Below are positions 1,634 through 28,549 of a DNA stretch of 32,536 nt, piece after piece. Every line of letters starts with the position of its first letter. Position 1 is the first letter of the stretch. This stretch comes from Bacteroidota bacterium (lineage in GTDB: Bacteria; Bacteroidota; Bacteroidia; J057). The notes under the pieces are model-generated. The model was not told where the DNA came from and ran no database searches. It saw only the letters and a program-made list of their open reading frames with translations. The stretch lies in the NCBI GenBank assembly GCA_004292985.1, contig RDXT01000797.1, positions 1 through 32,536 of the forward strand. The letters run 5' to 3'. The position numbers and the translations under genes were made by a program.

Positions 1634-2527
1634 ATGTCACCAAATATGAGCCGTACCGAGGCCATCCGCCTGCTCGCAGCAGCCTCGGCGGGACTAATCA
1701 TGCCTCTGAGCCTCTCTGCTACCCCCGAAACTGACAAATCTACCCCTATGACACCCCTGCCCCTCAAAGGAAATGTGAATCATTCCGCCTGCCGCTGGTG
1801 CTACGGTGGCATTCCGCTCGATGAGCTATGCGTTGCGGCCAAAGAAATGGGACTCAAAGGCATTGACCTCCTCAATCCGCCCGAATGGAAAACGGCCATC
1901 GGCCACGGACTGGCGGTCTCCATGTCCTTCGGCAGCCCCCTGGGCATCACCAAGGGTTTTAACGACCCCTCCCTGCACAAGCAGCTTCAAAAAGACTACG
2001 CCGAACTGATCCCCAAAGCAGCTGAGGCCGGGGTAAAAAATGTGATCTGCTTCTCCGGAAACCGCAACGGCATCACCGAGCAGGCCGGACTCGACAACTG
2101 CGCCCGCGGCCTCGAAGCCTCGGTAAAACTCGCTGAAAAACACGGCGTTATCCTCATGATGGAGTTGCTCAACAGCAAGGTGGACCACGCCGATTACCAG
2201 TGCGACCACACTCCCTGGGGCGTGCAACTGGCCGAGAAACTGGGTTCCCCCAACTTCAAACTCCTCTACGACATCTACCACATGCAGATCATGGAGGGAG
2301 ATGTGATCGCCACCATCCGCAAATACCACCCCTACATCGGCCACTACCACACAGGCGGCGTTCCCGGACGGCACGAGATTGACGAGTCGCAGGAGCTCTA
2401 CTACCCGGCCATCATCAAAGCCGTGCTGGAAACAGGATACAAAGGATTTGTCGCGCAGGAGTTTATCCCCGCCGGCAAAGATCCGCTGGCCTCGCTGCGT
2501 CAGGGCGTAAGCATTTGCGACGTTTAA
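1634..2527 (+). CDS. xylose-isomerase-like TIM-barrel protein (hydroxypyruvate isomerase family), secreted
   Basis: ATG start with a hydrophobic N-terminal signal-like segment (AIRLLAAASAGLIMPLSLSA). The motifs NHSACRWCY, MELLNSKVDH, YDIYHMQIMEGD and GHYHTGG..GRHE resemble Hyi/AP-endonuclease-2 TIM-barrel proteins. Confidence 0.6.
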   Translation: MSPNMSRTEAIRLLAAASAGLIMPLSLSATPETDKSTPMTPLPLKGNVNHSACRWCYGGIPLDELCVAAKEMGLKGIDLLNPPEWKTAIGHGLAVSMSFGSPLGITKGFNDPSLHKQLQKDYAELIPKAAEAGVKNVICFSGNRNGITEQAGLDNCARGLEASVKLAEKHGVILMMELLNSKVDHADYQCDHTPWGVQLAEKLGSPNFKLLYDIYHMQIMEGDVIATIRKYHPYIGHYHTGGVPGRHEIDESQELYYPAIIKAVLETGYKGFVAQEFIPAGKDPLASLRQGVSICDV

Positions 2528-2622
2528 GCGTATTGGCCGAAACGTAATAAAGTACCTTTTATCGTAATTTTAAATTATTAAAATTTACGGAAATTGCTGC
2601 TTGTTCTTCCAAAGGCAAGCAG

Positions 2623-4221
2623 ATGAATCAACGTTTACTTTTCCGGAGATGCAGGACCATGATAGGATTCCTTCTGGCCCTGCACTCTCATATCAGCGCC
2701 CAGAACGCCAGCCAGACCGCCGCCTATCTCAATGACATTGTGGCGAGTCTCGGGCGCAGGGTGGAGCTGCAATGGGCTTTGCACAAGGATGTGGAAGCGT
2801 TTAATGAGTCCATGAACCGTTATTACCGCCAGGCGCCCCTCGACGAGCCGGGCAGAGCGGCTTATGGGGAAAAATTAACGTTTCAGCCCACCGCCTTTGC
2901 CGCGATATGGGGCGCATCGGCCCGCAAGGCAGGCGATCTGGACTCGCTTCTCCAGCGGGTGTCCACCCTTCCCGACGAGCGCGAAGCGGCCGTGGCAGAA
3001 AAACTCAGCCAGCTCCGGCGGCTCCATGAGCAATTGTTCCAGTTGGTGGCGCGCCTCGAAGCCTATACCACCACCGCCGACTACCGGGAGGACATGCACC
3101 TCGAACAAGGCTATGGATACATCAGCCGCCTGGCCATTTTGTATGAAGACTTCTCCAATGTGAGCGCCCGCCTCCAGTTCGACCTGCAGGAGGTGCGCAA
3201 TGCCCTCGCGCCTGCCGATGGCCCGGAGCCCTATGCGGCAGTGCAGCGCGAACTGATGCCCCTGCTGCGCCACTCCCGGAGTCTGCTCTATGCGGTGCGC
3301 CAGGGAGACACCGCCGAGGTGCGCAGGCAAAGCCTGACCCTTGTCAAAAGCATCAACCTGGCGGCAGGGCGAAAAGCGGCAACCCTGAAATCCATTGTCC
3401 CGCCGCCGGGCCAGAATCCGCTTGCAGCCTATGAGGCCGTGCTGAGCCAGGCACGCGAGCTGCGCAGCATGGCCCTCGACTACCTGGGCGGAGCAGCAGT
3501 GGGAGCTTCCTGGCAGGCCTATGAAAGGGAGTATTTTTTCTTTAATCAATTGATGGTCAATAAATTCAGCAGGCCAGGAGAAAGCGTTACGGCCAGTTGG
3601 AACCGGATCGCGCGGATGGCCGACCTTCCCCTGCTCTGCGTTTCAGGGGAAGTAAACTGGGTATTTGCCCTGGTTCCGCCCCGGCGCTCTCTGGCGACCC
3701 GGGCGGTTGCCGCTGCGCCAGAGGGTCGAAATCTGGTCGTTTTGCTCGACATCTCAGGCTCTATGGGTCGGCCCGAAAAACTGCCCCTGGCCCGGAAAAC
3801 GCTGGCGGAGCTTGTCGCAGACCTGCAAGCCAATGACCGGATATCGCTGGTAACCTTTACCGAAACAGCGCAGGTACAGCAGGTGTCTGCCGACAATTCT
3901 TCACGTAATTCATTGATTTCCAGCCTTTCCAATCTAAAACCCGAAGGAGGAAGCGAAATCGTTCCCGGCCTGGAACTGGCCTATGCGGAGCTGGCACAGC
4001 ACAGCGCAGCCGGAAAGCGAAGCGAAGTTTTGCTCATCACTGATGGCGGTTTTGACCTGCCCGAAACCCTCGCCCCCCTGATCCGGAGCCAGCAGGAGGC
4101 GGGCATCCACCTCTCCACGCGCTATGTAGGCGTTGAAGAAGCCCGGATGGCGCCCCGTCTGCGGCGTATGGCCGAACTGGGTGGCGGAGACTACCGCTAC
4201 CTTCAGCAGACATTCCGCTGA
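2623..4221 (+). CDS. secreted von Willebrand factor type A (vWA) domain protein with a long helical N-terminal domain
   Basis: ATG start and a signal peptide ending ...HSHISAQ. The C-terminal third carries a MIDAS-type motif LVVLLDISGSMG (DxSxS), then TF/T and LITDG motifs typical of vWA. The N-terminal ~340 aa are helical and I cannot assign them. Confidence 0.65.
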   Translation: MNQRLLFRRCRTMIGFLLALHSHISAQNASQTAAYLNDIVASLGRRVELQWALHKDVEAFNESMNRYYRQAPLDEPGRAAYGEKLTFQPTAFAAIWGASARKAGDLDSLLQRVSTLPDEREAAVAEKLSQLRRLHEQLFQLVARLEAYTTTADYREDMHLEQGYGYISRLAILYEDFSNVSARLQFDLQEVRNALAPADGPEPYAAVQRELMPLLRHSRSLLYAVRQGDTAEVRRQSLTLVKSINLAAGRKAATLKSIVPPPGQNPLAAYEAVLSQARELRSMALDYLGGAAVGASWQAYEREYFFFNQLMVNKFSRPGESVTASWNRIARMADLPLLCVSGEVNWVFALVPPRRSLATRAVAAAPEGRNLVVLLDISGSMGRPEKLPLARKTLAELVADLQANDRISLVTFTETAQVQQVSADNSSRNSLISSLSNLKPEGGSEIVPGLELAYAELAQHSAAGKRSEVLLITDGGFDLPETLAPLIRSQQEAGIHLSTRYVGVEEARMAPRLRRMAELGGGDYRYLQQTFR

Positions 4222-4254
4222 AACCCGAACCCCATTTTTCCCCGTATAAGACAC

Positions 4255-4908
4255 ATGCGGTATTTCCTGTTCCTGCTGCCTTTTGTGGCGCTTCTCCCGC
4301 TTCGCGCGCAGACACATGTGGCCCCCGCCGATGGCGATCTGGGCATTCCCGGACGTGAGGCGCATTCGTTTTTGCTCTTCTGGAGCCGGGCCGACTCTGC
4401 CATCGGGTACGAGTATGTGCTGAGCGACAATTTTGTCTGTACGGCGGGCTGTGCGGGCGATACGCGCGAAGCCTTTGTAGCGGATACATTTACCGTGGAA
4501 TATGACCTGATCGAAGGCAAAACCTACTACTGGATCACGCGCATCCTCTACCCCAACAGCGCCAGCCAGTGGACGCTTCCGAGCGATTTTTACACCTATA
4601 CCCCTGAGCAAAAGCCTCTTGCGAAACTGGCCCCCAGCCCGGCACAGGCCTCAGATCTCCGGATTTTGCTCGACTGGACAGGCGCTTACCAGGCAGGCAG
4701 CCTCGAAATGCAGCTCTACGATCCGCAGGGACGCAGCCAGGGCCTGCCGATAATGATAGAGCGGCCCCGGCAGGGACAACGTTTTCAGACCCTCACACCC
4801 GAAGTGGCGGGACTTTCACCGGGCCTGTATTTCGCTGTGTTTCAGCCCCGCCACCAGGAAGGAAGCACGCTGCGGCCTTTTGTGCAAAAAGTGCTGATTA
4901 CCGAGTAA
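4255..4908 (+). CDS. small secreted protein with a probable T9SS (Por) C-terminal sorting domain
   Basis: ATG start and signal peptide MRYFLFLLPFVALLPLRAQ. The last ~80 aa (LEMQLYDPQGR...GLSPGLYFAVF...VQKVLI) match the beta-sandwich pattern of T9SS type A CTDs. It lies 33 nt downstream of the vWA gene. Confidence 0.5.
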   Translation: MRYFLFLLPFVALLPLRAQTHVAPADGDLGIPGREAHSFLLFWSRADSAIGYEYVLSDNFVCTAGCAGDTREAFVADTFTVEYDLIEGKTYYWITRILYPNSASQWTLPSDFYTYTPEQKPLAKLAPSPAQASDLRILLDWTGAYQAGSLEMQLYDPQGRSQGLPIMIERPRQGQRFQTLTPEVAGLSPGLYFAVFQPRHQEGSTLRPFVQKVLITE

Positions 4909-4956
4909 TGATATCGCTTTTCCTGTAATTTGGGGCAGCATTTTAACTGGCTGTTC

Positions 4957-5571
4957 ATGCACCCTTTTCCCGTCAAAAACCTGCTCATTGACCTCGGCGA
5001 TGTCCTGTATGCCATAGACATCAAAAGTACCCTCGACAAATATGCCCTGCTGGCCCGCGACAAGGGCACCCGCATAGAGTTCAGCAAAAGTGGCCAGAAT
5101 GAATGGTTTTCGCTGCTGGACACGGGTAAAGTGGAGATAGACGAATTTGCAGCGGGTCTGCGCGAGGACTTTAACCTCGATGCAGACATCGAAACGATCA
5201 AACGCATCTGGCTTGAGCTATTGGTGGGGGTAATTCCGGGGCGCGAAGCGCTGCTGCGTCAGTTGGGCCAGCGATACCGCCTCGCACTGCTGAGCAATAC
5301 CAGCCGCTACCATTTCCAGCACTTCAGCCCCCAATGCAAGCCCCTCTTCGACCAGATGGACCACCTCTTTTTGTCCTTCGAAATGGGCCTGCGCAAACCC
5401 CATCCGGAAATCTACCTCGCTGCCCTCGAAAGCGCAGGCTGGAAAGCCGAAGAAACCCTTTTTCTCGACGATTCGCATCCCAATATTCAGACAGCCGAAA
5501 CCCTGGGCCTGCGCACCTGGTGGATCGAGCGGCACGAAGATTTTGAGCGCATGGCGGAGGTGTATGGGTGA
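4957..5571 (+). CDS. HAD-superfamily hydrolase (subfamily IA-like phosphatase)
   Basis: The ORF-track start at 4930 is TTG. The first ATG (4957) gives MHPFPVKNLLIDLGDVL. HAD motifs are present: I (IDLGDVL), II (LLSNTS), III (RKPHPEIY) and IV (FLDDS). Confidence 0.7.
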   Translation: MHPFPVKNLLIDLGDVLYAIDIKSTLDKYALLARDKGTRIEFSKSGQNEWFSLLDTGKVEIDEFAAGLREDFNLDADIETIKRIWLELLVGVIPGREALLRQLGQRYRLALLSNTSRYHFQHFSPQCKPLFDQMDHLFLSFEMGLRKPHPEIYLAALESAGWKAEETLFLDDSHPNIQTAETLGLRTWWIERHEDFERMAEVYG

Positions 5572-5607
5572 GTAAAGATACTCAGCTCCTGTTGTGCCTA
5601 ACACCCG

Positions 5608-6741
5608 TTACCTGCTGTTTTTGGCTTCCAGCTCCAATAAATACTTCTTCCGCCATAGTCCACCGCCATAGCCTGTCAGTTGGCCATCTGAGCCAATAAC
5701 CCTATGGCAAGGAATTAAAATCGAAATTCTATTCATTCCGTTTGCATTGCCTACTGCTCTGATGCTTTCCGGTCTTCCAATAGCAATTGCTTGCTCTTTA
5801 TACGATTTTGTTTGTCCATAAGGAATATGTCGTAGTGCTTCCCAAACCCTATTTTGAAAGTCAGTACCCGGGGTGTGCAATGGGACAGAAAAATCTGCTC
5901 GTTTCCCATCAAAATATTCGCTCAGCTGAATTTCTAATAAATCAAAATACTTGTTACTTCCCTGAATAATTACTGCATTCAAAAGCCTGGCAATTGATTT
6001 TAACTCCGTTTCCAGCATTTTTCTGTCCGTAAATTCTAACAGGCAAATTCCCTGCTTGCTTGCACAGGCAAGCATTGTTCCTAACGGTGTTTCCAATCGT
6101 TTGAGGTCAACGATGTTCTTTTGCTTTCCACTTTTGGGGGAAACGCCAAAAATATTTTTAAAGCTCTCTCCAAAACCACTTAGGGATTCAAACCCAAGGT
6201 CAAAAGCTGTTTGTGTAACACTCTCGCCGCCTTGTATTTTTTTAAATGCCGAATTTATCCTGAACATCCTCTGATAAGCGTGAAATGTAATCCCGTGATT
6301 CTTTAAAAACCATCTTCTTATTTGACTCGGTTCTATTCCTCTTTTCTTTAAGTCGTAATCCTTGAATTTCAGAGATGGATTTTGAGAAAGTTCATCTATT
6401 ACTGTTTGATACAAATCAGGGGTTTTATGTACATTTTCCAACGGATTACAAACCTTACAGGGCCTGTATCCCTTCAGGATACATTCTTTCGTAGTGGTAA
6501 AAAATTCCACATTTTCAAATTTAGGCTTTCTTGCCGAACAAGTTGGACGGCAAAAAATTCCTGTAGTTTTAACAGCGGTAAAAAAGACACCTTCAAAACA
6601 TGCGTCTTTCTCAATAATTGCCTGGTACATTATTTCTACTGTCAATTTCATATTGAAAAAACTGAATGAACTGATGTTCTCCGCAACATCAGTTGCATTT
6701 TCTCGATCTTCCAACTCTTTGAATGTTGAATACGGGGTCAT
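5608..6741 (-). CDS. ada: bifunctional Ada-type regulator / methylated-DNA-protein-cysteine methyltransferase (Ada Zn-binding + AraC HTH + Ogt domains)
   Basis: Three domains are recognisable.
- Ada N-terminal Zn domain: FFTAVKTTGIFCRPTCSARKP...GYRPCKVCNP.
- A central AraC-type HTH region.
- A C-terminal MGMT active site IPCHRVIG.
The listed start at 6768 is TTG and lies upstream of the predicted -7 box. The first ATG is 6741, and alternative starts at 6651 or 6630 fit Ada N-termini better. The gene is strongly AT-rich relative to its neighbours. Confidence 0.8.
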   Translation of the reverse strand: MTPYSTFKELEDRENATDVAENISSFSFFNMKLTVEIMYQAIIEKDACFEGVFFTAVKTTGIFCRPTCSARKPKFENVEFFTTTKECILKGYRPCKVCNPLENVHKTPDLYQTVIDELSQNPSLKFKDYDLKKRGIEPSQIRRWFLKNHGITFHAYQRMFRINSAFKKIQGGESVTQTAFDLGFESLSGFGESFKNIFGVSPKSGKQKNIVDLKRLETPLGTMLACASKQGICLLEFTDRKMLETELKSIARLLNAVIIQGSNKYFDLLEIQLSEYFDGKRADFSVPLHTPGTDFQNRVWEALRHIPYGQTKSYKEQAIAIGRPESIRAVGNANGMNRISILIPCHRVIGSDGQLTGYGGGLWRKKYLLELEAKNSR

Positions 6742-6765
6742 TTGTTTTCTCTTCGTTTGTTTGGG

Positions 6766-6797
6766 CAAAGATATTCCTGCTCCACGCTATGCAACAA
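6766..6797 (-). promoter_or_regulatory. Bacteroidota-type promoter for the ada-like gene (TTG-N18-TATCTTTG)
   Basis: The minus strand reads cggTTGTTGcatagcgtggagcaggaaTATCTTTGccc. It has a perfect TAnnTTTG -7 box (6766-6773) and a TTG about 18 nt upstream (6792-6797). Confidence 0.45.
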
Positions 6798-6909
6798 CCG
6801 AAAAATTGACACGTATTTTTTTGAACCGTCGGGGCTTAGCTTTCTCCCCTCACCTCCCGGAAGCGCTCGATCCCTGCCACCAGATTTTCGATGATCTCCA
6901 TTAAAACCC

Positions 6910-7497
6910 CTACCCCATCTCCTCCCAAACCCTCCGGCTAAGCTCAGGCACCACCTCCTGCTCAAACCAGGGGTTTTGAAGCCGCCAGCCGATGTTGCGG
7001 GGCGAAGGGTGTGGCAGCGGGAAAACGCCTTGTCCGATGTATTTTTCCCACTGTTTGACGGTCTGGGCGAGGCTGCCGCCGGGCATGCCGCCGAGGTGGT
7101 AGCGGATGGCATATTGCCCCACGGCGAGGATCAGCCGCACGTCTTTCAGTTCGCCCATCAGGCGGGAGCGCCACAGCGGCGCGCACTCCGGACGCGGAGG
7201 CAGGTCGCCGCGCGTGCCCTTGCCCGGATAGCAAAACCCCAGCGGAGCAATGGCGATCCGTCCTTCATCATAAAAGGTATCTCTGTCCATCTGGAGCCAG
7301 TTGCGGAGGCGGTCGCCGCTGAGGTCATTCCACGGAATGCCCGTAGCATGCACCTTCGTACCCGGCGCCTGGCCTGCGATCAGGATACGGGCCGTAGCCG
7401 TAGCCCGCAACACAGGCTGCGGACCCAGGGGCAGATGCGCCTCGCATACGCGGCAGGCGCGAATCTCTGCCAGCAACTCATCGAGGCTCCGGGACAT
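6910..7497 (-). CDS. uracil-DNA glycosylase superfamily protein
   Basis: ATG start. It has an N-terminal C-x2-C (CRVCE) followed by ILIAGQAPG (the GxAPG motif of UDG families 4/5-like) and a C-terminal HPSPRN motif. 195 aa. Confidence 0.65.
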   Translation of the reverse strand: MSRSLDELLAEIRACRVCEAHLPLGPQPVLRATATARILIAGQAPGTKVHATGIPWNDLSGDRLRNWLQMDRDTFYDEGRIAIAPLGFCYPGKGTRGDLPPRPECAPLWRSRLMGELKDVRLILAVGQYAIRYHLGGMPGGSLAQTVKQWEKYIGQGVFPLPHPSPRNIGWRLQNPWFEQEVVPELSRRVWEEMG

Positions 7498-7524
7498 CCT
7501 TCACGACTTATATTCAACCACTTC

Positions 7525-8403
7525 TCAGGCCTTGTCTTCTTCATTCGCCGCGGTCTTCGCCACAGCCTTCTCGGCTTTCTCCCGCTCCGCTCTTTCCTTC
7601 TCGGCTCTCTCTTTCTCGGCCTTTTCTTCTTCTTTCTGCTGACGGTCGCGCTGCCGCACAGCAATCGCCGAGATGCCGATGCTCACCTCATACAAAATCT
7701 GCAAAGGGATAAAGATCAGAATCTGGCTCAGCCAGTCCGGAGGGGTAATCACCGCAGCCACGACCAGCAGGACCACAATCGCATGGCGACGGTAGGTGCG
7801 CAAAAACTCAGGTGAAATCACCCCCATCCGGGAGAGATAGTAGGCAACCACAGGCATCTCAAATACAATGCCCCCGCCCAGTGCAATCTGGGTAACCATC
7901 GAAATCACCTCGCCGATCCGCCACTGGTTTTCTACGTTGTCCGATATTTTAAAGCTGGAAAGAAATTGCACCGAAAATGGCGTGATGACATAGTAGGAGA
8001 ATGCCACACCCGCAAAAAACAGCACGCTCATCACAAAAATATTGCCCTGAAGGCCTCCCCGCTCCGTAGGTTTCAGACCCGGCTTCACAAAACGCCAGAT
8101 CTCCCACAGAAAATAGGGAAACGAAAAGATGAATCCGGCGATCAGACCAATGGTAATGGACTTGAGAAACTGCTCGTAGGGGCTGATGGAAATAAAAATC
8201 ACATCTATCTTGTCGAAGCAGAGTGCCTGCTGTATCTGGCACAGTAAACGGTTGGTCGGAAACTCCGGACGGAAAGGAGCCAGAATCACATCGTCGAGCA
8301 GCCATTTCATGTTGAAATACATGACAACGGCAATAATAACAATCATGGCCAGGCTCCGAAGCAGGTGCCAGCGTAACTCTTCAAGATGGTCGAGAAAGGA
8401 CAT
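7525..8403 (-). CDS. tatC: twin-arginine translocase subunit TatC with a charged repeat tail
   Basis: MSFLDHLEELRWHLLRS is the canonical TatC N-terminus, followed by six TM segments. The longer ORF start (ATG 8511) sits in the loop of the glyA terminator hairpin, so I prefer 8403. The C-terminus carries a KAEKE/RAEKE/RAERE/KAEKA repeat. Confidence 0.8.
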   Translation of the reverse strand: MSFLDHLEELRWHLLRSLAMIVIIAVVMYFNMKWLLDDVILAPFRPEFPTNRLLCQIQQALCFDKIDVIFISISPYEQFLKSITIGLIAGFIFSFPYFLWEIWRFVKPGLKPTERGGLQGNIFVMSVLFFAGVAFSYYVITPFSVQFLSSFKISDNVENQWRIGEVISMVTQIALGGGIVFEMPVVAYYLSRMGVISPEFLRTYRRHAIVVLLVVAAVITPPDWLSQILIFIPLQILYEVSIGISAIAVRQRDRQQKEEEKAEKERAEKERAEREKAEKAVAKTAANEEDKA

Positions 8404-8494
8404 TTCCTTTTCTTCCTCCTCTGCAGAAGGGTCCTTTTCTTTCTGCCGAAACGTCTTAAACTGGGATATCAGACTCACAGGACAGCTATTAATT

Positions 8495-8523
8495 AAAAAA
8501 CCGGACGACATACAATCGTCCGG
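8495..8523 (-). terminator. rho-independent terminator downstream of glyA
   Basis: The minus strand reads CCGGACGA-ttgtatg-TCGTCCGG followed by TTTTTTAATT, 39 nt after the glyA stop. Confidence 0.7.
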
Positions 8524-8561
8524 CTAATGTAACGAATATCCTGGTATCTTCAGGGGCTTTC

Positions 8562-9872
8562 TTACCACTGAAACATCGGGAACTTGTGCATAAATTCATT
8601 TACCTCGCCGCGTACGTCTGCGATCACTGACTCGCTTTCGGGGTTCATCAGCACACGGTCAATCAGGGAGGCTACCACTTCCACATCCGCTTCTTTCAGG
8701 CCGCGGGTGGTGAGGGCAGGTGTACCCAGACGGATGCCGCTGGTTACCATCGGGCTGCGGGTATCGAAAGGCACCATGTTTTTGTTGATGGTGATGTCGG
8801 CGCGCACGAGGGCATCTTCGGCAATTTTTCCGGTGAGGGTCGTGCTTTTGGCGCGTAAGTCAATCAGCATCAGGTGGTTATCAGTACCGCCGGAAATGAC
8901 TTTGTAGCCGAGGGCCGTCATGGCGTTGGCCAGTGCCTGGGCGTTTTTAATCACCTGACGGGCATAGGTATCGAACTCCGGACGAAGGGCTTCTCCGAAT
9001 GCAACCGCCTTGGCAGCGATCACGTGCATCAGCGGACCGCCCTGGGTGCCGGGAAATACGGCGCTGTCGAGGATCGAACCCATGGTACGAACCTGGCCTT
9101 TGGGGGTGGTGATTCCCAGCGGGTTAGGTACATTCTTGCCCACGAGAATCATACCGCCCCGGCTTGCGCGGAGGGTCTTGTGGGTGGTGGTCGTTACCAC
9201 ATCGCAATAGTCGAGCGGATTGCGCAGGAGGCCCTTGGAGATCAGACCCGCAGGGTGTGCCATATCGCACATCAGCAGCGCGCCTACCTCATCGGCGATC
9301 TCGCGGAAAGCGGCATAGTCCCAGTCGCGGGAGTAGCTGCTGGCACCTGTGATCAGCAGACGGGGCTTTTCACGGCGGGCGGTGTCGCGCACCTGGTCAT
9401 AGTCCACATAGCCCGTTTCCTGGCTTACGCCGTAGAATACCGGACGGAAATATTTACCCGAAAAATTGACTGGCGAACCGTGGGTCAGGTGACCGCCATG
9501 CGAAAGGTCAAAGCCCATAATGGTATCTCCGGGCTTCAGCAGCGCCAGAAATACAGCCGCATTGGCCTGGGCACCGGAGTGAGGCTGCACATTCACCCAT
9601 TCAGCGCCAAAAAGCGCCTTCGCACGCTCGCGGGCAAGCTCCTCTACCTCATCTGCATACTGGCAGCCGCCATAATACCGCGCTCCGGGAAGTCCCTCGG
9701 CATATTTGTTCGTCAGACAACTGCCCGCTGCCTGCATCACAGCTTCGCTCACGAAGTTCTCGGAAGCGATCAGCTCCATACCTTCCCGCTGCCGCTTCTC
9801 TTCTTTCCCGATAATGTCAAATACTTCGTCGTGGCCGGCAAGGGTGGCAGCCTGATGTTGAAGTTCGGTCAT
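8562..9872 (-). CDS. glyA: serine hydroxymethyltransferase
   Basis: ATG start. Motifs ELIASENF, GYPGxRYYGG-like (LPGARYYGG) and the PLP-lysine region [14 protein letters not shown]. 436 aa. Confidence 0.95.
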
Positions 9873-22720: not shown

Positions 22721-22736
22721 TTTCTTGTTTTGTTTG

Positions 22737-22809
22737 CACGGGCGGAAGGTCTCGAACCCTCAGCCTTCGGTTTTGGAGACCGACGCTCTACCAATTGAGC
22801 TACGCCCGT
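22737..22809 (-). tRNA. tRNA-Trp (anticodon CCA)
   Basis: Hand-folded cloverleaf: ACGGGCG-TA-GCTC[AATTGGTA]GAGC-G-TCGGT[CTCCAAA]ACCGA-AGGCT-GAGGG[TTCGAGA]CCTTC-CGCCCGT-G. The 3' CCA is not encoded. Confidence 0.9.
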
Positions 22810-22833
22810 ATGCCGCGTGGCTTTCACCACAAA

Positions 22834-22868
22834 TAAGAAAAAGATACCCCCTTAGAAGCGGGGGTATC
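22834..22868 (-). terminator. rho-independent terminator downstream of tuf
   Basis: The minus strand reads GATACCCCC-gcttctaa-GGGGGTATC followed by TTTTTCTTATTT, 17 nt after the tuf stop. Confidence 0.75.
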
Positions 22869-22884
22869 ATACGTTTTGTTTCAA

Positions 22885-24084
22885 TTAATCAGGGAGAACT
22901 TCGGTTACCTGACCAGCGCCGATGGTACGACCACCTTCGCGGATAGCGAAACGAAGACCTTTTTCCATAGCTACTTCATAGATCAGCGCAACGGTAACAG
23001 AGATGTTATCGCCAGGCATTACCATGTCCACACCTGCTGGCAGGCTGATTACGCCTGTTACGTCGGTGGTACGGAAGTAGAACTGAGGACGGTAGTTGGA
23101 GAAGAACGGAGTGTGACGGCCACCTTCTTCTTTGCTCAGCACGTACACTTCAGCTTTGAAGTTTTTGTGTGGCTTTACAGAACCTGGCTTCACAACCACC
23201 ATTCCGCGACGGATCTGGGTTTTGTCAACACCGCGGAGGAGGAGACCTACGTTGTCACCTGCTTCACCGGTATCCAGAATTTTGCGGAACATTTCTACAC
23301 CGGTTACGGTAGAGTTCATTTTTTCAGCGCCGAGGCCGATGATTTCTACCGGATCACCTGTGTTGATGGTGCCGCGCTCGATACGACCTGTAGCAACGGT
23401 ACCACGACCTGTGATCGTGAACACGTCTTCTACGGGCATAAGGAAAGGCTTGTCTTTGTCGCGCTCAGGAGTTGGGATGAAGTCATCCACAGACTGCATG
23501 AGTTCGAGGATTTTTTCTACCCACACTGGCTCGCCGCTGAGGCCACCGAGAGCGGAGCCGCGGATAACGGGGGTGTCATCACCAGGGAAGCCATAGATGT
23601 TGAGCAGGTCGCGGATTTCCATCTCCACCAGTTCGAGGAGTTCTTCGTCGTCCACGAGGTCAACCTTGTTCATAAACACCACCAGCGAAGGTACACCTAC
23701 CTGACGTGCGAGGAGGATGTGTTCGCGGGTTTGAGGCATCGGACCGTCAGTAGCAGCAACGACCAGAATGCCACCGTCCATCTGAGCAGCACCGGTAACC
23801 ATGTTTTTCACATAGTCGGCGTGACCTGGGCAGTCCACGTGTGCGTAGTGGCGGTTTGCGGTTTCGTACTCTACGTGCGCAGTGTTGATGGTGATACCAC
23901 GCTCTCTTTCTTCGGGAGCGTTGTCAATCTGATCAAACGCGACGGCTTTAGCATTGCCACCTGTTTTGGATTCAGAGAGTACCTTGGTAATAGCTGCGGT
24001 GAGAGTGGTCTTACCGTGGTCAACGTGTCCGATGGTACCGATGTTTACGTGCGGCTTGTTACGTTGAAATTGTTCCTTTGCCAT
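22885..24084 (-). CDS. tuf: elongation factor Tu
   Basis: 399 aa. GTPase motifs [17 protein letters not shown] and NKVD, preceded by the usual tRNA cluster. Confidence 0.98.
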
Positions 24085-24133
24085 CGTGATATGCGTGTTT
24101 CTGAGAGACTTTGCTTAAAAAAAACAAAATTGA

Positions 24134-24206
24134 GAGCCAATGGCCGGAATCGAACCGGCGACCCCCACCTTACCATGGTGGTGCTCTACCTGCTGAGCTA
24201 CATTGG
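24134..24206 (-). tRNA. tRNA-Thr (anticodon GGT)
   Basis: Hand-folded: GCCAATG-TA-GCTC[AGCAGGTA]GAGC-A-CCACC[ATGGTAA]GGTGG-GGGTC-GCCGG[TTCGATT]CCGGC-CATTGGC-T. CCA is not encoded. Confidence 0.88.
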
Positions 24207-24226
24207 CTTCTCTGATACAAAAAAAA

Positions 24227-24299
24227 GAGCGGGAGACGAGGCTCGAACCCGCGACCCTCAGCTTGGAAGGCTGATGCTCTACCAACTGAGCTACTCCCG
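24227..24299 (-). tRNA. tRNA-Gly (anticodon TCC)
   Basis: Hand-folded: GCGGGAG-TA-GCTC[AGTTGGTA]GAGC-A-TCAGC[CTTCCAA]GCTGA-GGGTC-GCGGG[TTCGAGC]CTCGT-CTCCCGC-T. CCA is not encoded. Confidence 0.88.
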
Positions 24300-24343
24300 C
24301 CTGTTTAACCTTATCAAAAGAACGAAAGGCTTTCCATGCCTTT

Positions 24344-24426
24344 GTGGGGGAAGGAGGATTCGAACCTCCGAAGTCGTAAGACAACAGATTTACAGTCTGT
24401 CCCATTTGGCCGCTCTGGAATTCCCC
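24344..24426 (-). tRNA. tRNA-Tyr (anticodon GTA), type II with a long variable arm
   Basis: Hand-folded: GGGGGAA...ACAGA[CTGTAAA]TCTGT-TGTCTTACGACTTC-GGAGG[TTCGAAT]CCTCC-TTCCCCC-A. CCA is not encoded. Confidence 0.88.
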
Positions 24427-24443
24427 CAGATTTTCTATGTCAA

Positions 24444-24516
24444 GAGCCGGTGGACGGATTCGAACCCCCGACCTGCTGATTACAAATCAGCTGCTCTACC
24501 AGCTGAGCTACACCGG
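24444..24516 (-). tRNA. tRNA-Thr (anticodon TGT)
   Basis: Hand-folded: GCCGGTG-TA-GCTC[AGCTGGTA]GAGC-A-GCTGA[TTTGTAA]TCAGC-AGGTC-GGGGG[TTCGAAT]CCGTC-CACCGGC-T. There is one G-G mismatch in the T stem. CCA is not encoded. Confidence 0.85.
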
Positions 24517-24634
24517 CGGTAATACCTTTGTCGTATGGATACACCTGCCAAAAAAACCGCGTAAAGTTAGGGAAGCGGTGTTAAGAAATCAACAAGCTGA
24601 GAAAAAAAATATCGCTTCCCTTCGAAACCCTTTA

Positions 24635-26284: not shown

Positions 26285-26773
26285 TTAAATGAATTCGAGT
26301 TCGCTCTCCTGAAGGATGCGGATGGGGCGCTTGAGGCTCTCTTCGAGGGAAATGAAGGTCTCCGTGCGCTGGATGCCTTCGATGGGCTGCACTTTGTCGT
26401 TGAGGATGCTGCGCAGCTCGCGGGTATTGCGGCTCACGATCTTGAGGAATATCCCGTAGCGGCCGGTCGTGTAGTGAATTTCCGTGATTTCGGGTATCTG
26501 CTCCAGTTGTTTCACGATGCGGTTGTATAAAGAACCTTTTTCGAGAAACATCCCCACGAAAGCACAGATGTCGTATCCCAGCTTGCTGGCGTCTATCTCC
26601 ATGTGAGAGCCTTTGACTACCCCTTTCTCCATGAGCTTCTTCATCCGCACATGAACCGTGCCCCCGGAAATCTCCAATTGCTTGGCAATCTCCGTGTAGG
26701 CCTTCTGGGCATCCTGCATGAGTATCGAAAGAATTTGCAGGTCCAGTTTATCAATTTCTAAAATAGTGCTCAT
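26285..26773 (-). CDS. Lrp/AsnC family transcriptional regulator
   Basis: ATG start. N-terminal wHTH ([40 protein letters not shown]) and a C-terminal RAM/AsnC_trans_reg domain. 162 aa. Confidence 0.85.
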
Positions 26774-26860
26774 AATTTTGAAACTAAAACAAAGGAATGG
26801 TAATAAAAAAGCATTTTTATTGATATAATTTTAATAAAGGAAAAAAATATTAAAAATTTC

Positions 26861-26891
26861 TTGACAAAAGGGGTGTTTTGTTATAGATTTG
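26861..26891 (+). promoter_or_regulatory. strong promoter driving the plus-strand tRNA-like RNA
   Basis: TTGACA (26861-26866), a 17-nt spacer, then TAGATT. The same region reads TAGATTTG (26884-26891), which matches the Bacteroidota -7 consensus TAnnTTTG with a TTG about 20 nt upstream. The predicted TSS is near 26897-26899. Confidence 0.55.
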
Positions 26892-26958
26892 TATCATAAT
26901 GACTGACGGAAATGCTCTGGTAGTCACGTTCTTGGATAGCGTTACTTTATTTTTACCC

Positions 26959-27075
26959 TGTAGGGTGATGAAACTGGCAGCCATGCCCTCTGGTCTCGAG
27001 GGTGGGGGCTGAGGCACAAATTCCCGCAAGGGAGCTAACCTCCCCGTGAAGGTTCGAATCCTTCCCCTACAGCCA
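26959..27075 (+). ncRNA. unclassified tRNA-like RNA (type-II Leu/Ser-like cloverleaf, aberrant anticodon loop, 45-nt variable arm, encoded CCA)
   Basis: Hand fold: TGTAGGG-TG-ATG[AAACTGGCAGC]CAT-G-CCCTC[TGGTCTC]GAGGG-T GGGGGCTGAGGCACAAATTCCC[GCAA]GGGAGCTAACCTCCCC GT-GAAGG[TTCGAAT]CCTTC-CCCTACA-G-CCA.
- Canonical features: 7-bp acceptor, U8, G18G19-type D loop, TTCGAAT T-loop.
- Non-canonical features: the anticodon loop has G at 33 and a pyrimidine at 37.
It has its own promoter and terminator. Confidence 0.6.
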
Positions 27076-27096
27076 GGTGTTTTGAGTCTGATGAAT

Positions 27097-27130
27097 AAGC
27101 CTTCTGAACAATTGTTCAGAAGGCTTTTTT
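27097..27130 (+). terminator. rho-independent terminator of the tRNA-like RNA (shared hairpin with the convergent gene)
   Basis: AAGCCTTCTGAA-caattg-TTCAGAAGGCTT followed by TTTTCG on the plus strand. On the minus strand the same hairpin follows the stop of the 27152..28312 gene but lacks a U-tract. Confidence 0.75.
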
Positions 27131-27151
27131 CGTATGAAGGTGCTATGCGCA

Positions 27152-28312
27152 TCACTTTTCTTCGTTTAAGCGGCGGCGCAGCACGAGAATGTCCTGCTGG
27201 AGCTTTTTGATGTCCTGCTGGGCCTGTACCAGGGCTTCATTATCCACGGGTGCGCCGCTCTGGGCCGGGCGGTTAGCGGCAGTGGTGGATTTAGGGGCTT
27301 TTTTGAAAATATCAAACAGGCCCCGCGTGCCTTCTTCTTCTGAGGCGAGGGAGGGATCTCCTTCGACAACGGCGGTTGTTACGGCTTCGAGGCGCTTGTT
27401 CACATTTTCGGCGTGTGCCTGAAAACGTTGCTCCAGTGCGTATTGTTTTTCGAGGGCATCGGCGCGGCTGCTGTCGAGGTTGATCCGGAACTGGAAGAGT
27501 TTGGCTGGCAGCTCGATAATGGCCCTGATGATCTGCAGGGGCAATTCGATCATGGCCATAGCTGTGCTGGGCTTCACGAGGCGAATGCTGGAAGGGTAGC
27601 CAGATGCATCAAAATTGATGTCAAACTCTGTCTGTACCCAAGGCTCAAGGGGGATTTCGATAAAGTGAACTTCGCTTTTGTGGGGCAGGCGCAGTTCGTA
27701 GCGGAACAGCTCATTTTCACCGGAACTCAGCACAAAGTCATAGGTGCCCATCGGCTTGCAAAACACCCCTGAACGAAGGGCCGCGTCATTGCGGCTCATC
27801 TGGCTGCTGATATTGGACGACTGCTCTTCGACGCTAAATATCAGGCTCATATCGGGGCTGTTTGCTGCGAGGGCTTTGTTTACCCGCTCAAGTGCCTTGC
27901 TATCAAATGGATTGATTACCCCCGAAAACAGCAGCACCGGCACAGCGGCCATCCCATCTATGTCGCGGGTACGCACACCCGGCGCAATGGCCACCTCGGC
28001 CACAGCAGAACCCAACTCCACAATTTTTCCCAGAAAAGCGCCTGTTTCGTCTTTAATTACGGTTTTGAGCGACTGGAGGAAGCCTTTTTCACTAAAAGCC
28101 ACATCAAGGGTATCGCTCGAAAAGGGAGACGCCGTATATTTCAGATAATATACGTGCTCAGGATCAGGGACCAGTTCAGCGGTAGGCTGCTCGAAAGCGA
28201 CGCTGCCTCCCTGCCGGGCAATTTTGATGCTCACCATTCCCTTCGGGAGGTGGTAACAGTGCAGGGTACCGCTCGAAGGTGTGGGAGTGGAGACGAGCAT
28301 GTTTTTAGCCAT
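27152..28312 (-). CDS. hypothetical protein with a C-terminal coiled-coil/disordered tail; no family recognised
   Basis: A long ORF with native-looking codon usage. ATG 28312 (MAKNMLVSTPTP...) is preferred over the upstream start at 28372. There is no signal peptide or TM segment. The last ~110 aa are heptad-like or low-complexity (ALEKQYALEQRFQAHAENVNKRLEA ... VQAQQDIKKLQQDILVLRRRLNEEK). Confidence 0.6.
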   Translation of the reverse strand: MAKNMLVSTPTPSSGTLHCYHLPKGMVSIKIARQGGSVAFEQPTAELVPDPEHVYYLKYTASPFSSDTLDVAFSEKGFLQSLKTVIKDETGAFLGKIVELGSAVAEVAIAPGVRTRDIDGMAAVPVLLFSGVINPFDSKALERVNKALAANSPDMSLIFSVEEQSSNISSQMSRNDAALRSGVFCKPMGTYDFVLSSGENELFRYELRLPHKSEVHFIEIPLEPWVQTEFDINFDASGYPSSIRLVKPSTAMAMIELPLQIIRAIIELPAKLFQFRINLDSSRADALEKQYALEQRFQAHAENVNKRLEAVTTAVVEGDPSLASEEEGTRGLFDIFKKAPKSTTAANRPAQSGAPVDNEALVQAQQDIKKLQQDILVLRRRLNEEK

Positions 28313-28549
28313 AGATTGGGGGTTCTGTTTGTGAGATGATGGGCAATTTACAGAAATTCTATAAACAGGCATTAAAAATTCAAAAAATAATAATGGCTGA
28401 ATTGAAAGACAATACGCCTCCGGTCATCCTAAGGGCCTGATTTACAGAAATTTAAAAAAATGGCCTGTTTTTTAGCGTAATATTTACACAAACCGAATAT
28501 TTTCCGGCCTGCTTCCAATCATTCCTATTTCCATATTGTTAATGCTTCT

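Follow-up and report, generated by a model that had tools for sequence, protein, structure and literature searches.

In a 32,536-nucleotide (nt) stretch of Bacteroidota DNA (hereafter the window; contig RDXT01000797.1) we analysed a stand-alone gene for an RNA resembling transfer RNA (tRNA), whose core, from the acceptor stem through the discriminator G73 (27072) and C74 (27073), occupies positions 26959–27073 of the plus strand. The RNA was found to belong to a conserved family with about 40 copies in genomes and metagenomes of Bacteroidota, which is derived from a class II (long-variable-arm) tRNA, keeps all elements of the L-shaped fold and is uncatalogued, having been missed by tRNA finders and Rfam alike. 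The conservation of the family, its aspartate identity marks, an anticodon loop unfit for decoding and the neighbouring gene of an AsnC-type regulator together suggest that it is probably an undescribed relative of tRNA working outside translation. The specific reading that we favour, with a probability of about 0.4, is that of a non-decoding, aspartylated tRNA-like RNA under the control of AsnC, which would act as a carrier or sensor of aspartate or asparagine.

To our knowledge, tRNA-shaped RNAs outside decoding are known only as scattered cases. The non-proteinogenic tRNA-Gly of Staphylococcus, tRNA-Other of Bacillus cereus and the domains of transfer-messenger RNA (tmRNA) and YrlA are tRNA-shaped, processed, sometimes charged, and stand outside decoding; we know of none among them that unites a class II scaffold with an aspartate anticodon loop and the variable-arm motif described below, and no description of such an RNA was found in the literature. 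The present family is widespread and conserved, with a clear architecture (class II scaffold, aspartate identity set, structured variable arm and recurrent regulator gene), and is overlooked by standard annotation of tRNAs and non-coding RNAs. If charged, it would represent a new aminoacyl carrier or amino-acid sensor combining the identity elements of two tRNA classes in one molecule, and its linkage to AsnC would provide a testable route into the regulation of amino acids of the aspartate/asparagine family in Bacteroidota. A cultured organism, Pontibacter sp. G13 of the order Cytophagales, makes a direct approach to the question possible, since its complete genome (CP134696.1) has three tandem copies at about 5,110,190–5,110,565.

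Fold and conservation of the tRNA-like family

The cloverleaf drawn by hand in a preliminary description of the window was right, and every element described there was found in its place. The 7-bp acceptor stem (TGTAGGG, 26959–26965, with CCCTACA, 27065–27071) is followed on its 5' strand by U8 and G9. The D arm (26968–26984) has a 3-bp stem (ATG/CAT) and an 11-nt loop, AAACTGGCAGC (as RNA AAACUGGCAGC), containing G18 and G19, and the anticodon arm (26986–27002) consists of the stem CCCTC/GAGGG and the 7-nt loop TGGTCTC (26991–26997, positions 32–38). A variable arm of 45 nt (27003–27047) leads to the T arm (27048–27064; GAAGG-TTCGAAT-CCTTC), the discriminator and an encoded CCA (27073–27075). 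The nucleotides of the L-shape tertiary structure (U8, A14, G18-G19, U54-U55-C56 of the T loop and A58) are present and conserved across the family, as is the T loop UUCGAAU. The resemblance of the D loop to that of tRNA-Leu, noted earlier, was borne out by comparison with GAAUUGGCAGC, the D loop of an ARAGORN-called tRNA-Leu (L098, 3747–3833), with which the window loop shares 10 of 11 positions; this match marks the scaffold as class II and Leu-like.

With class II tRNAs (tRNA-Leu, tRNA-Ser, tRNA-Tyr) the family shares the 7-bp acceptor stem, U8, the 3-bp D stem, the 11-nt D loop with G18-G19, the 5-bp anticodon stem, the 7-nt anticodon loop, a long variable arm and the UUCGAAU T loop. It departs from these tRNAs in its arm, which measures 40–55 nt and comprises three helices and an internal loop of 6 x 4 that is conserved, and in its GUC anticodon with U37 and sometimes G33, and it scores at least 105 bits, against at most 40 bits for class II tRNAs, with a covariance model (R1) built on 30 sequences of the family.

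ARAGORN called the five canonical tRNAs of the window, and neither the tRNA-like RNA nor a tmRNA. No homologue was called by this program either, a single call in L110 being a spurious partial one. In Rfam 15 the window RNA had no match at the gathering threshold; for the general tRNA model RF00005 (threshold 29 bits) there was no match in 26800–27200, whether at the gathering threshold or at E ≤ 10. Apart from terminator-hairpin matches, the search at E ≤ 10 returned only a partial match to tRNA-Sec (RF01852), with 16 bits and E = 1.8 against a threshold of 47 bits. A match to tmRNA was obtained by neither ARAGORN nor Rfam, and nothing in Rfam matched in 17 family loci. The view of a stand-alone tRNA-like RNA that is not a canonical tRNA is thereby upheld, and the Rfam covariance scan that had been proposed for it assigned no ordinary family above threshold.

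Homologues were collected in three ways (loci other than the window carry L-numbers: L003, L004, L083 and so on to L128). A synteny scan with the neighbouring trmD gene covered 80 Bacteroidota loci from species-representative genomes and revealed the RNA in two of them, L003 and L004, both from metagenome-assembled genomes of uncultured Bacteroidia, so that it is not a general feature of Bacteroidota. A second search, with a pattern built on the D loop and T loop, yielded 27 metagenome loci with family members, some of them with two or three tandem copies, and a search starting from the neighbouring regulator protein added further members, including those of Pontibacter sp. G13. With R1 the window core scored 126 bits (E ~1e-33) and family members 105–133 bits, while canonical tRNAs, including those for Tyr, Ser and Leu, stayed at or below 40 bits. 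Two divergent copies, 380 nt apart on the minus strand of L104 (2925–3053 and 3433–3564), scored 84 and 72 bits. CUGUCUC is replaced in one of them by a 9-nt loop, CUGCUCUUC, and the other has a T-loop insertion, UUCGAUUAUCC; the two may represent a variant sub-family or copies in decay. Viral contigs scanned with the family pattern gave nothing, which leaves a phage origin unsupported. A role as an integration target or mobile element was rejected: no integrase lies nearby and the neighbours are conserved housekeeping genes.

Covariation was evaluated in a 40-sequence model-based alignment, with a MAFFT alignment, not fitted to the structure, as a check; both gave the same covariation picture. 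The model-based alignment has 96.6% of its cells paired, with changes on both sides in 19 of the 32 pairs, and none of 500 shuffles reached the observed paired percentage or covariation score. When the 3' partners were slid by one to three columns, pairing fell to 45–61%. All seven helices are supported by covariation, among them the acceptor stem with five covarying pairs, the D stem with pair 10:25 (A-U in some members, U-A in others), the T stem with pair 50:64 (A-U, G-C or G-U) and the three helices of the variable arm. The anticodon stem is nearly invariant in sequence; at pair 30:40 most members have U.G, whereas the window has U-A and L117 has G-C. The compensatory changes by which the preliminary description had proposed to judge the fold were thus seen in every helix, including those of the variable arm.

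These data also bear on the possibility of a decaying tRNA pseudogene or a chance fold. It could appeal to the silence of the tRNA finders and to the folding energy of the core alone, which does not surpass that of its shuffled versions (z = -0.18, not significant). Single-sequence folding to the minimum free energy (MFE) fails to recover the cloverleaf. Against it stand some 40 homologues with compensatory changes in every helix and invariant loops, the conservation of promoters and terminators, and the occurrence of the gene in many genomic contexts. The probability left to this reading is negligible, and we regard the pseudogene as refuted by the comparative data.

The variable arm had been described as an interrupted helix capped by a GNRA tetraloop. 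A structural parse of 30 members revealed a more elaborate organisation, with three helices, a bulge and a conserved internal loop. In the window, helix H1 (GGGG, 27004–27007, with CCCC, 27042–27045) is followed by a 5' bulge and by H2 (AGG, 27012–27014, with CCU, 27039–27041); beyond an internal loop, CACAAA (27015–27020) opposite CUAA (27035–27038), the arm ends in H3 (UUCCC-GCAA-GGGAG, 27021–27034). Across the family the arm measures 40–55 nt. H1 has 4 bp (GGGG/CCCC, GAGG/CCUC, GGAG/CUCC or AGGG/CCCU), the bulge 3–6 nt, and H2 3 bp, which covary; the asymmetric internal loop is conserved as 5'-R-A-N-A-A-A opposite 5'-C-Y-A-A. The terminal hairpin H3 keeps its pairing while its sequence, length and loop are wholly different among members, so the GCAA tetraloop of the window is incidental and the GNRA cap is not a feature of the family. 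The alternative helix GGGAG/CUCCC, considered earlier and present also in the MFE structure, is fully formable in one of 37 members only and was dropped. The reading as a tRNA whose variable region is interrupted by an insertion or intron was likewise rejected, as the architecture of the arm itself is conserved and U37 would stay after removal of such an insert. The A-rich internal loop probably docks a dedicated partner.

Aspartate identity elements and recurrent neighbours

Among 37 distinct members the anticodon loop is CUGUCUC in 23, UGGUCUC in seven, UUGUCUC in three, CGGUCUC in two, and UUGUCGC and CUGUCGC in one each; the UGGUCUC of the window is thus common to six other members, including the copies of Pontibacter sp. 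G13. G34, U35, C36, C38 and G73 are invariant in both the 30- and the 40-sequence alignment. Position 32 is C or U, position 33 is U, or G in 9/37, and position 37 is U in 35/37 and G in the remaining two. The claim that this loop does not suit a decoding tRNA therefore holds for the pyrimidine at position 37 and has to be amended for G33, which is a lineage variant of a consensus U33. G33 is tolerated in a whole sub-lineage with tandem copies, and this tolerance, together with U37, argues against ribosomal decoding, so that a non-decoding RNA appears, from the loop sequences, to be the better reading.

The loop of E. coli tRNA-Asp is CUGUCAC, from which the family consensus differs at position 37 only. 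Aspartate identity depends mainly on G73, G34, U35, C36 and C38, strong determinants that evolution has conserved, with G2-C71 as a minor determinant in bacteria (PMC9976931). The family holds all five as well as an invariant G2-C71, and thus resembles tRNA-Asp(GUC) in a loop of the form C-U-G-U-C-N-C combined with G73. As the invariant loop nucleotides and G73 make up the full strong set, binding by aspartyl-tRNA synthetase (AspRS) followed by aspartylation would be the most likely event in the life of this RNA. The divergent AsnC orthologue would control its transcription, and the charged RNA would serve as a non-ribosomal aspartate carrier, or as a sensor, in aspartate/asparagine homeostasis.

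The gene order in the window is rplS, trmD, a gene of the Lrp/AsnC family (26285–26773, minus strand, divergent from the RNA), the RNA (plus strand), a gene for a 406-aa protein (minus strand) and susD. Between the regulator gene and the RNA lies an intergenic region of 185 bp. The regulator reaches 167 bits (E = 2e-49) with the NCBIfam AsnC model, short of the equivalog cut-off of 227 bits, and 50 bits with the Lrp model; among solved structures it is matched best by AsnC of E. coli (2CG4, E = 2e-34), and the second match has E = 4e-22. By these scores it is specifically AsnC-like and a predicted AsnC orthologue. An AsnC-type regulator adjoins the RNA in eight of the loci found through the RNA itself. 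Conversely, when the search started from the regulator, six of nine evaluable loci had the RNA immediately upstream of the regulator gene, in divergent orientation. Flanking contexts of at least five unrelated kinds are represented among these six; the other three loci (Lewinellaceae, Phaeodactylibacter and one other), which lack the RNA, hold the most distant orthologues. Altogether, the divergent and adjacent arrangement occurs in the window and in L093, L099, L105, L106, L117, L118, L122, L124, L125 and L128. In L099 a copy of the RNA is located on each side of the regulator gene, which explains how L003 and L004 came to keep one position and the window the other. When ten intergenic regions were inspected by eye for a conserved AsnC operator, only promoter elements stood out. 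Judging by this recurrent arrangement, the AsnC-type regulator is likely the controller of the RNA promoter.

A second sub-clade, with the acceptor stem UGUGAGG or UGUGAAG, has different neighbours. In nine loci the RNA is divergent from a NUDIX gene (e.g. L084, 3202–3993, minus strand), whose products are 52–87% identical with CoA pyrophosphatase as their best NCBIfam match, and the downstream genes differ; the NUDIX hydrolase gene is a second recurrent partner of the RNA. ThrA (bifunctional aspartokinase-homoserine dehydrogenase) is encoded downstream in seven loci of this sub-clade, on the strand of the RNA. A role of the RNA as a cis-acting leader of thrA was considered and rejected, since in five of these loci a gene on the opposite strand separates the two, and other close members have unrelated downstream genes.

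Weighing of the possible functions

Several observations weigh against an aspartylated RNA under AsnC control. Bacterial tRNA-Asp has G1-C72, a pair that helps to position the 3' end within the AspRS of E. coli (PMC9976931). The family has U1-A72 instead (39 of 39 distinct rows). G10, which matters in E. coli, is absent and is replaced by A or U. The variable region of a tRNA is turned towards class II synthetases, so that the 45-nt arm could block AspRS. Taken together, the class II scaffold, U1-A72, U37, the lack of G10 and another anticodon-stem sequence set the family apart from tRNA-Asp. Furthermore, the sequence invariance of the anticodon stem exceeds the known needs of AspRS and hints at another partner that reads this sequence, and G73, G2-C71 and the long arm fit seryl-tRNA synthetase (SerRS) as well. 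As to the genomic context, ThrA is 64–87% identical among its loci, and the ThrA and NUDIX neighbourhoods may reflect plain synteny; about one third of the loci have neither AsnC nor ThrA nor NUDIX as a neighbour in the DNA examined.

Of the other readings, an uncharged decoy or scaffold, which would titrate or recruit a protein reading the anticodon arm, the internal loop of the variable arm or both, and thereby act as a regulator, is doubtful; the candidate partners are AspRS, an enzyme that modifies tRNAs, and an unknown, dedicated protein. It would account for the invariance of the anticodon stem-loop and of the R-A-N-A-A-A/C-Y-A-A loop in a molecule whose other helices covary, a pattern typical of protein-contact surfaces, and tandem copies with strong promoters suggest a stoichiometric need, with a regulator gene adjoining the RNA. 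What it leaves aside is the strict maintenance of the acceptor stem, G73 and C74, as in chargeable tRNAs; in addition, no candidate partner gene is linked to the RNA across all lineages, the gene of the 406-aa protein being found in one lineage only.

A serine-accepting RNA, the possibility raised in the preliminary description, is rather unlikely. Here SerRS would read the arm, G73 and G2-C71, and the seryl-RNA would be a non-ribosomal donor or, as with tRNA-Sec, a substrate for conversion. Serine identity resides chiefly in the variable arm, irrespective of the anticodon; a change of A73 to G73 switches leucine identity to serine, and C2-G71 is an antideterminant for SerRS (PMC9976931). The class II scaffold with its tRNA-Leu-like D loop, the long variable arm and the invariant G73 and G2-C71 all agree with such an identity and keep the idea alive. 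SerRS ignores the anticodon, however, so that the invariance of G34, U35, C36 and C38 beside the variable positions 32, 33 and 37 would be left unexplained; the arm is two to three times as long as that of tRNA-Ser and bulges near its base, which could change the orientation read by SerRS. The acceptor sequence of tRNA-Ser also differs from that of the family, with its U1-A72 and U3-A70. With tRNA-Sec and allo-tRNAs the family shares the character of a specialised RNA with a long variable arm, read there by dedicated proteins, the amino acid being converted on the tRNA. Unlike tRNA-Sec, it has a 7/5 acceptor/T geometry, not 8/5 or 9/4, and the anticodon GUC, not UCA, and neither selA nor selB was seen near the RNA.

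A more specific variant of the aspartylated RNA, which we consider unlikely, is that of a putative dedicated, non-decoding cofactor for asparagine synthesis through AspRS and GatCAB. An ordinary discriminating AspRS would charge the RNA because of its aspartate anticodon loop and G73, GatCAB would accept it because of U1-A72 and amidate the bound aspartate to asparagine, and U37, G33 and the large arm would keep the product off EF-Tu and the ribosome, so that no asparagine would be placed at aspartate codons. The AsnC orthologue would switch the gene on at asparagine shortage. In E. coli asnA adjoins asnC as a divergent pair; the RNA gene would thus occupy the place that asnA has there. Like tRNA-Asn in the AspRS/GatCAB pathway, the family has an invariant U1-A72, and an AsnC-type regulator adjoins its gene; unlike tRNA-Asn, its anticodon is GUC instead of GUU and its D loop is the large one of class II. 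Amidation by bacterial GatCAB is promoted by U1-A72 of Asp-tRNA-Asn (PMC1635274; PMC2811023), and an extra D-loop nucleotide (U20A) is the antideterminant that blocks amidation of tRNA-Asp (PMC1635274). The 11-nt class II D loop has extra nucleotides, so the family does not conform to the U20A-type rule of GatCAB substrates, which counts against the variant. Some Bacteroidetes have kept GatCAB together with AsnRS and GlnRS while having no AsnA or AsnB (PMC4206432); if true, the cofactor variant would explain this retention.

Finally, the RNA might be a true tRNA decoding GAY, either an odd tRNA-Asp isoacceptor or a mistranslator placing serine or asparagine at aspartate codons. Its intact tRNA core, tRNA-style gene organisation and invariant GUC anticodon are in line with this, as is the 7-nt loop with U33 in about three quarters of the members, and mistranslating families of anomalous bacterial tRNAs are known (PMC10404621). 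We consider it quite improbable, given G33 in 9/37 distinct members, including all three tandem copies of the cultured Pontibacter sp. G13, the pyrimidine at position 37 in 35/37, an arm far beyond the range of decoding tRNAs, and general tRNA models scoring the RNA below their own thresholds. The aspartylated, non-decoding RNA under AsnC control remains the reading that we prefer.

Gene organisation and associated elements

The gene has a predicted strong promoter of its own, an unconserved leader and a trailer bearing a terminator, and occurs singly or in tandem. In the window, the promoter (26861–26892, plus strand) consists of TTGACA (26861–26866), a 17-nt spacer and TAGATT, as had been proposed, and reached 10 of 12 matches in a consensus scan; the overlapping TAGATTTG (26885–26892) also fits the motif TAnnTTTG recurring upstream of other genes of the family. 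Most members have a TTTG element followed by TAnnTTTG 35–150 nt upstream, which we take to be the Bacteroidota promoter type with its -33 and -7 elements. The leader of the window gene is about 60 nt long (26897–26958), and when the window was aligned with L003 and L004, no conservation was seen outside the core; among loci, leaders of 35–150 nt differ in both length and sequence. The trailer with the intrinsic terminator extends over 27076–27132. A terminator scan located a hairpin at 27097–27126 followed by TTTTTT; hairpin and T run had been recognised before, the stem having 13 bp and not the 12 bp then counted. A hairpin and T run are found downstream of most members. Tandem arrays consist of three copies in L117 and L102 and of two in L124, with spacers of 20–45 nt.

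The encoded CCA, previously listed as a peculiarity of the RNA, is present in the window and absent from its five canonical tRNA genes, which encode C74 alone after the discriminator. It is not a feature of the family, as the full CCA occurs in two of 37 distinct members (the window and one other) and only C74 is conserved. In ten canonical tRNA genes (window 22736–24517; L004 7211–9093) C74 was likewise seen without C75-A76, with one exception having the full CCA. C74-only ends thus look like a lineage-wide style of 3' end, common to the tRNA-like family and to the genome's own tRNAs. This end, the unconserved leader and the layout with tandem copies and terminators suggest that the core, of about 115 nt, would be the functional unit, set free and finished by the ordinary machinery of tRNA maturation. 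RNase P would cut off the 5' leader; at the 3' end, trimming would stop at C74, like that of the genome's ordinary tRNAs, and the CCA would then be completed.

The RNA is followed by the convergent gene of the 406-aa protein (27152–28372, minus strand), which has no family match. Homologues of 340–406 aa with a C-terminal part rich in charged residues are encoded in L003, L004, L093, L099, L111, L114, L117 and L118; they are confined to the lineage with the trmD-asnC arrangement, and no match to them was obtained in Pfam, NCBIfam or PDB sequences.

In the second sub-clade, trailers between the RNA and thrA (L083, 11140–11210; L102, 5201–5345) have a segment able to pair with the 3' half of the terminator. 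In L083 this is CCACCUUU, which is pairable with AAAGGUGG and would replace the terminator's own 5' half; this alternative pairing, seen by eye only, could be due to chance.

Two further observations came from the pattern search. A different conserved element of about 215 nt was encountered on six metagenome contigs (L087, 3729–3843; L089, L091, L092, L113 and L115); in L087 it has no ARAGORN call and no Rfam match at E ≤ 0.01. It possesses the same D-loop-like string, TGAAATTGGCAGC, and the T-loop string GGTTCGAATCC, and is otherwise unrelated to the family. In L098 sixteen tRNA genes are packed into 7.5 kb (2342–9790), an arrangement similar to the tRNA arrays of phages or mobile elements. 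Of the pattern match in this locus (3715–3833), the first half lies outside the tRNA-Leu called by ARAGORN, and a second D-arm-like string is thus located just upstream of that gene.

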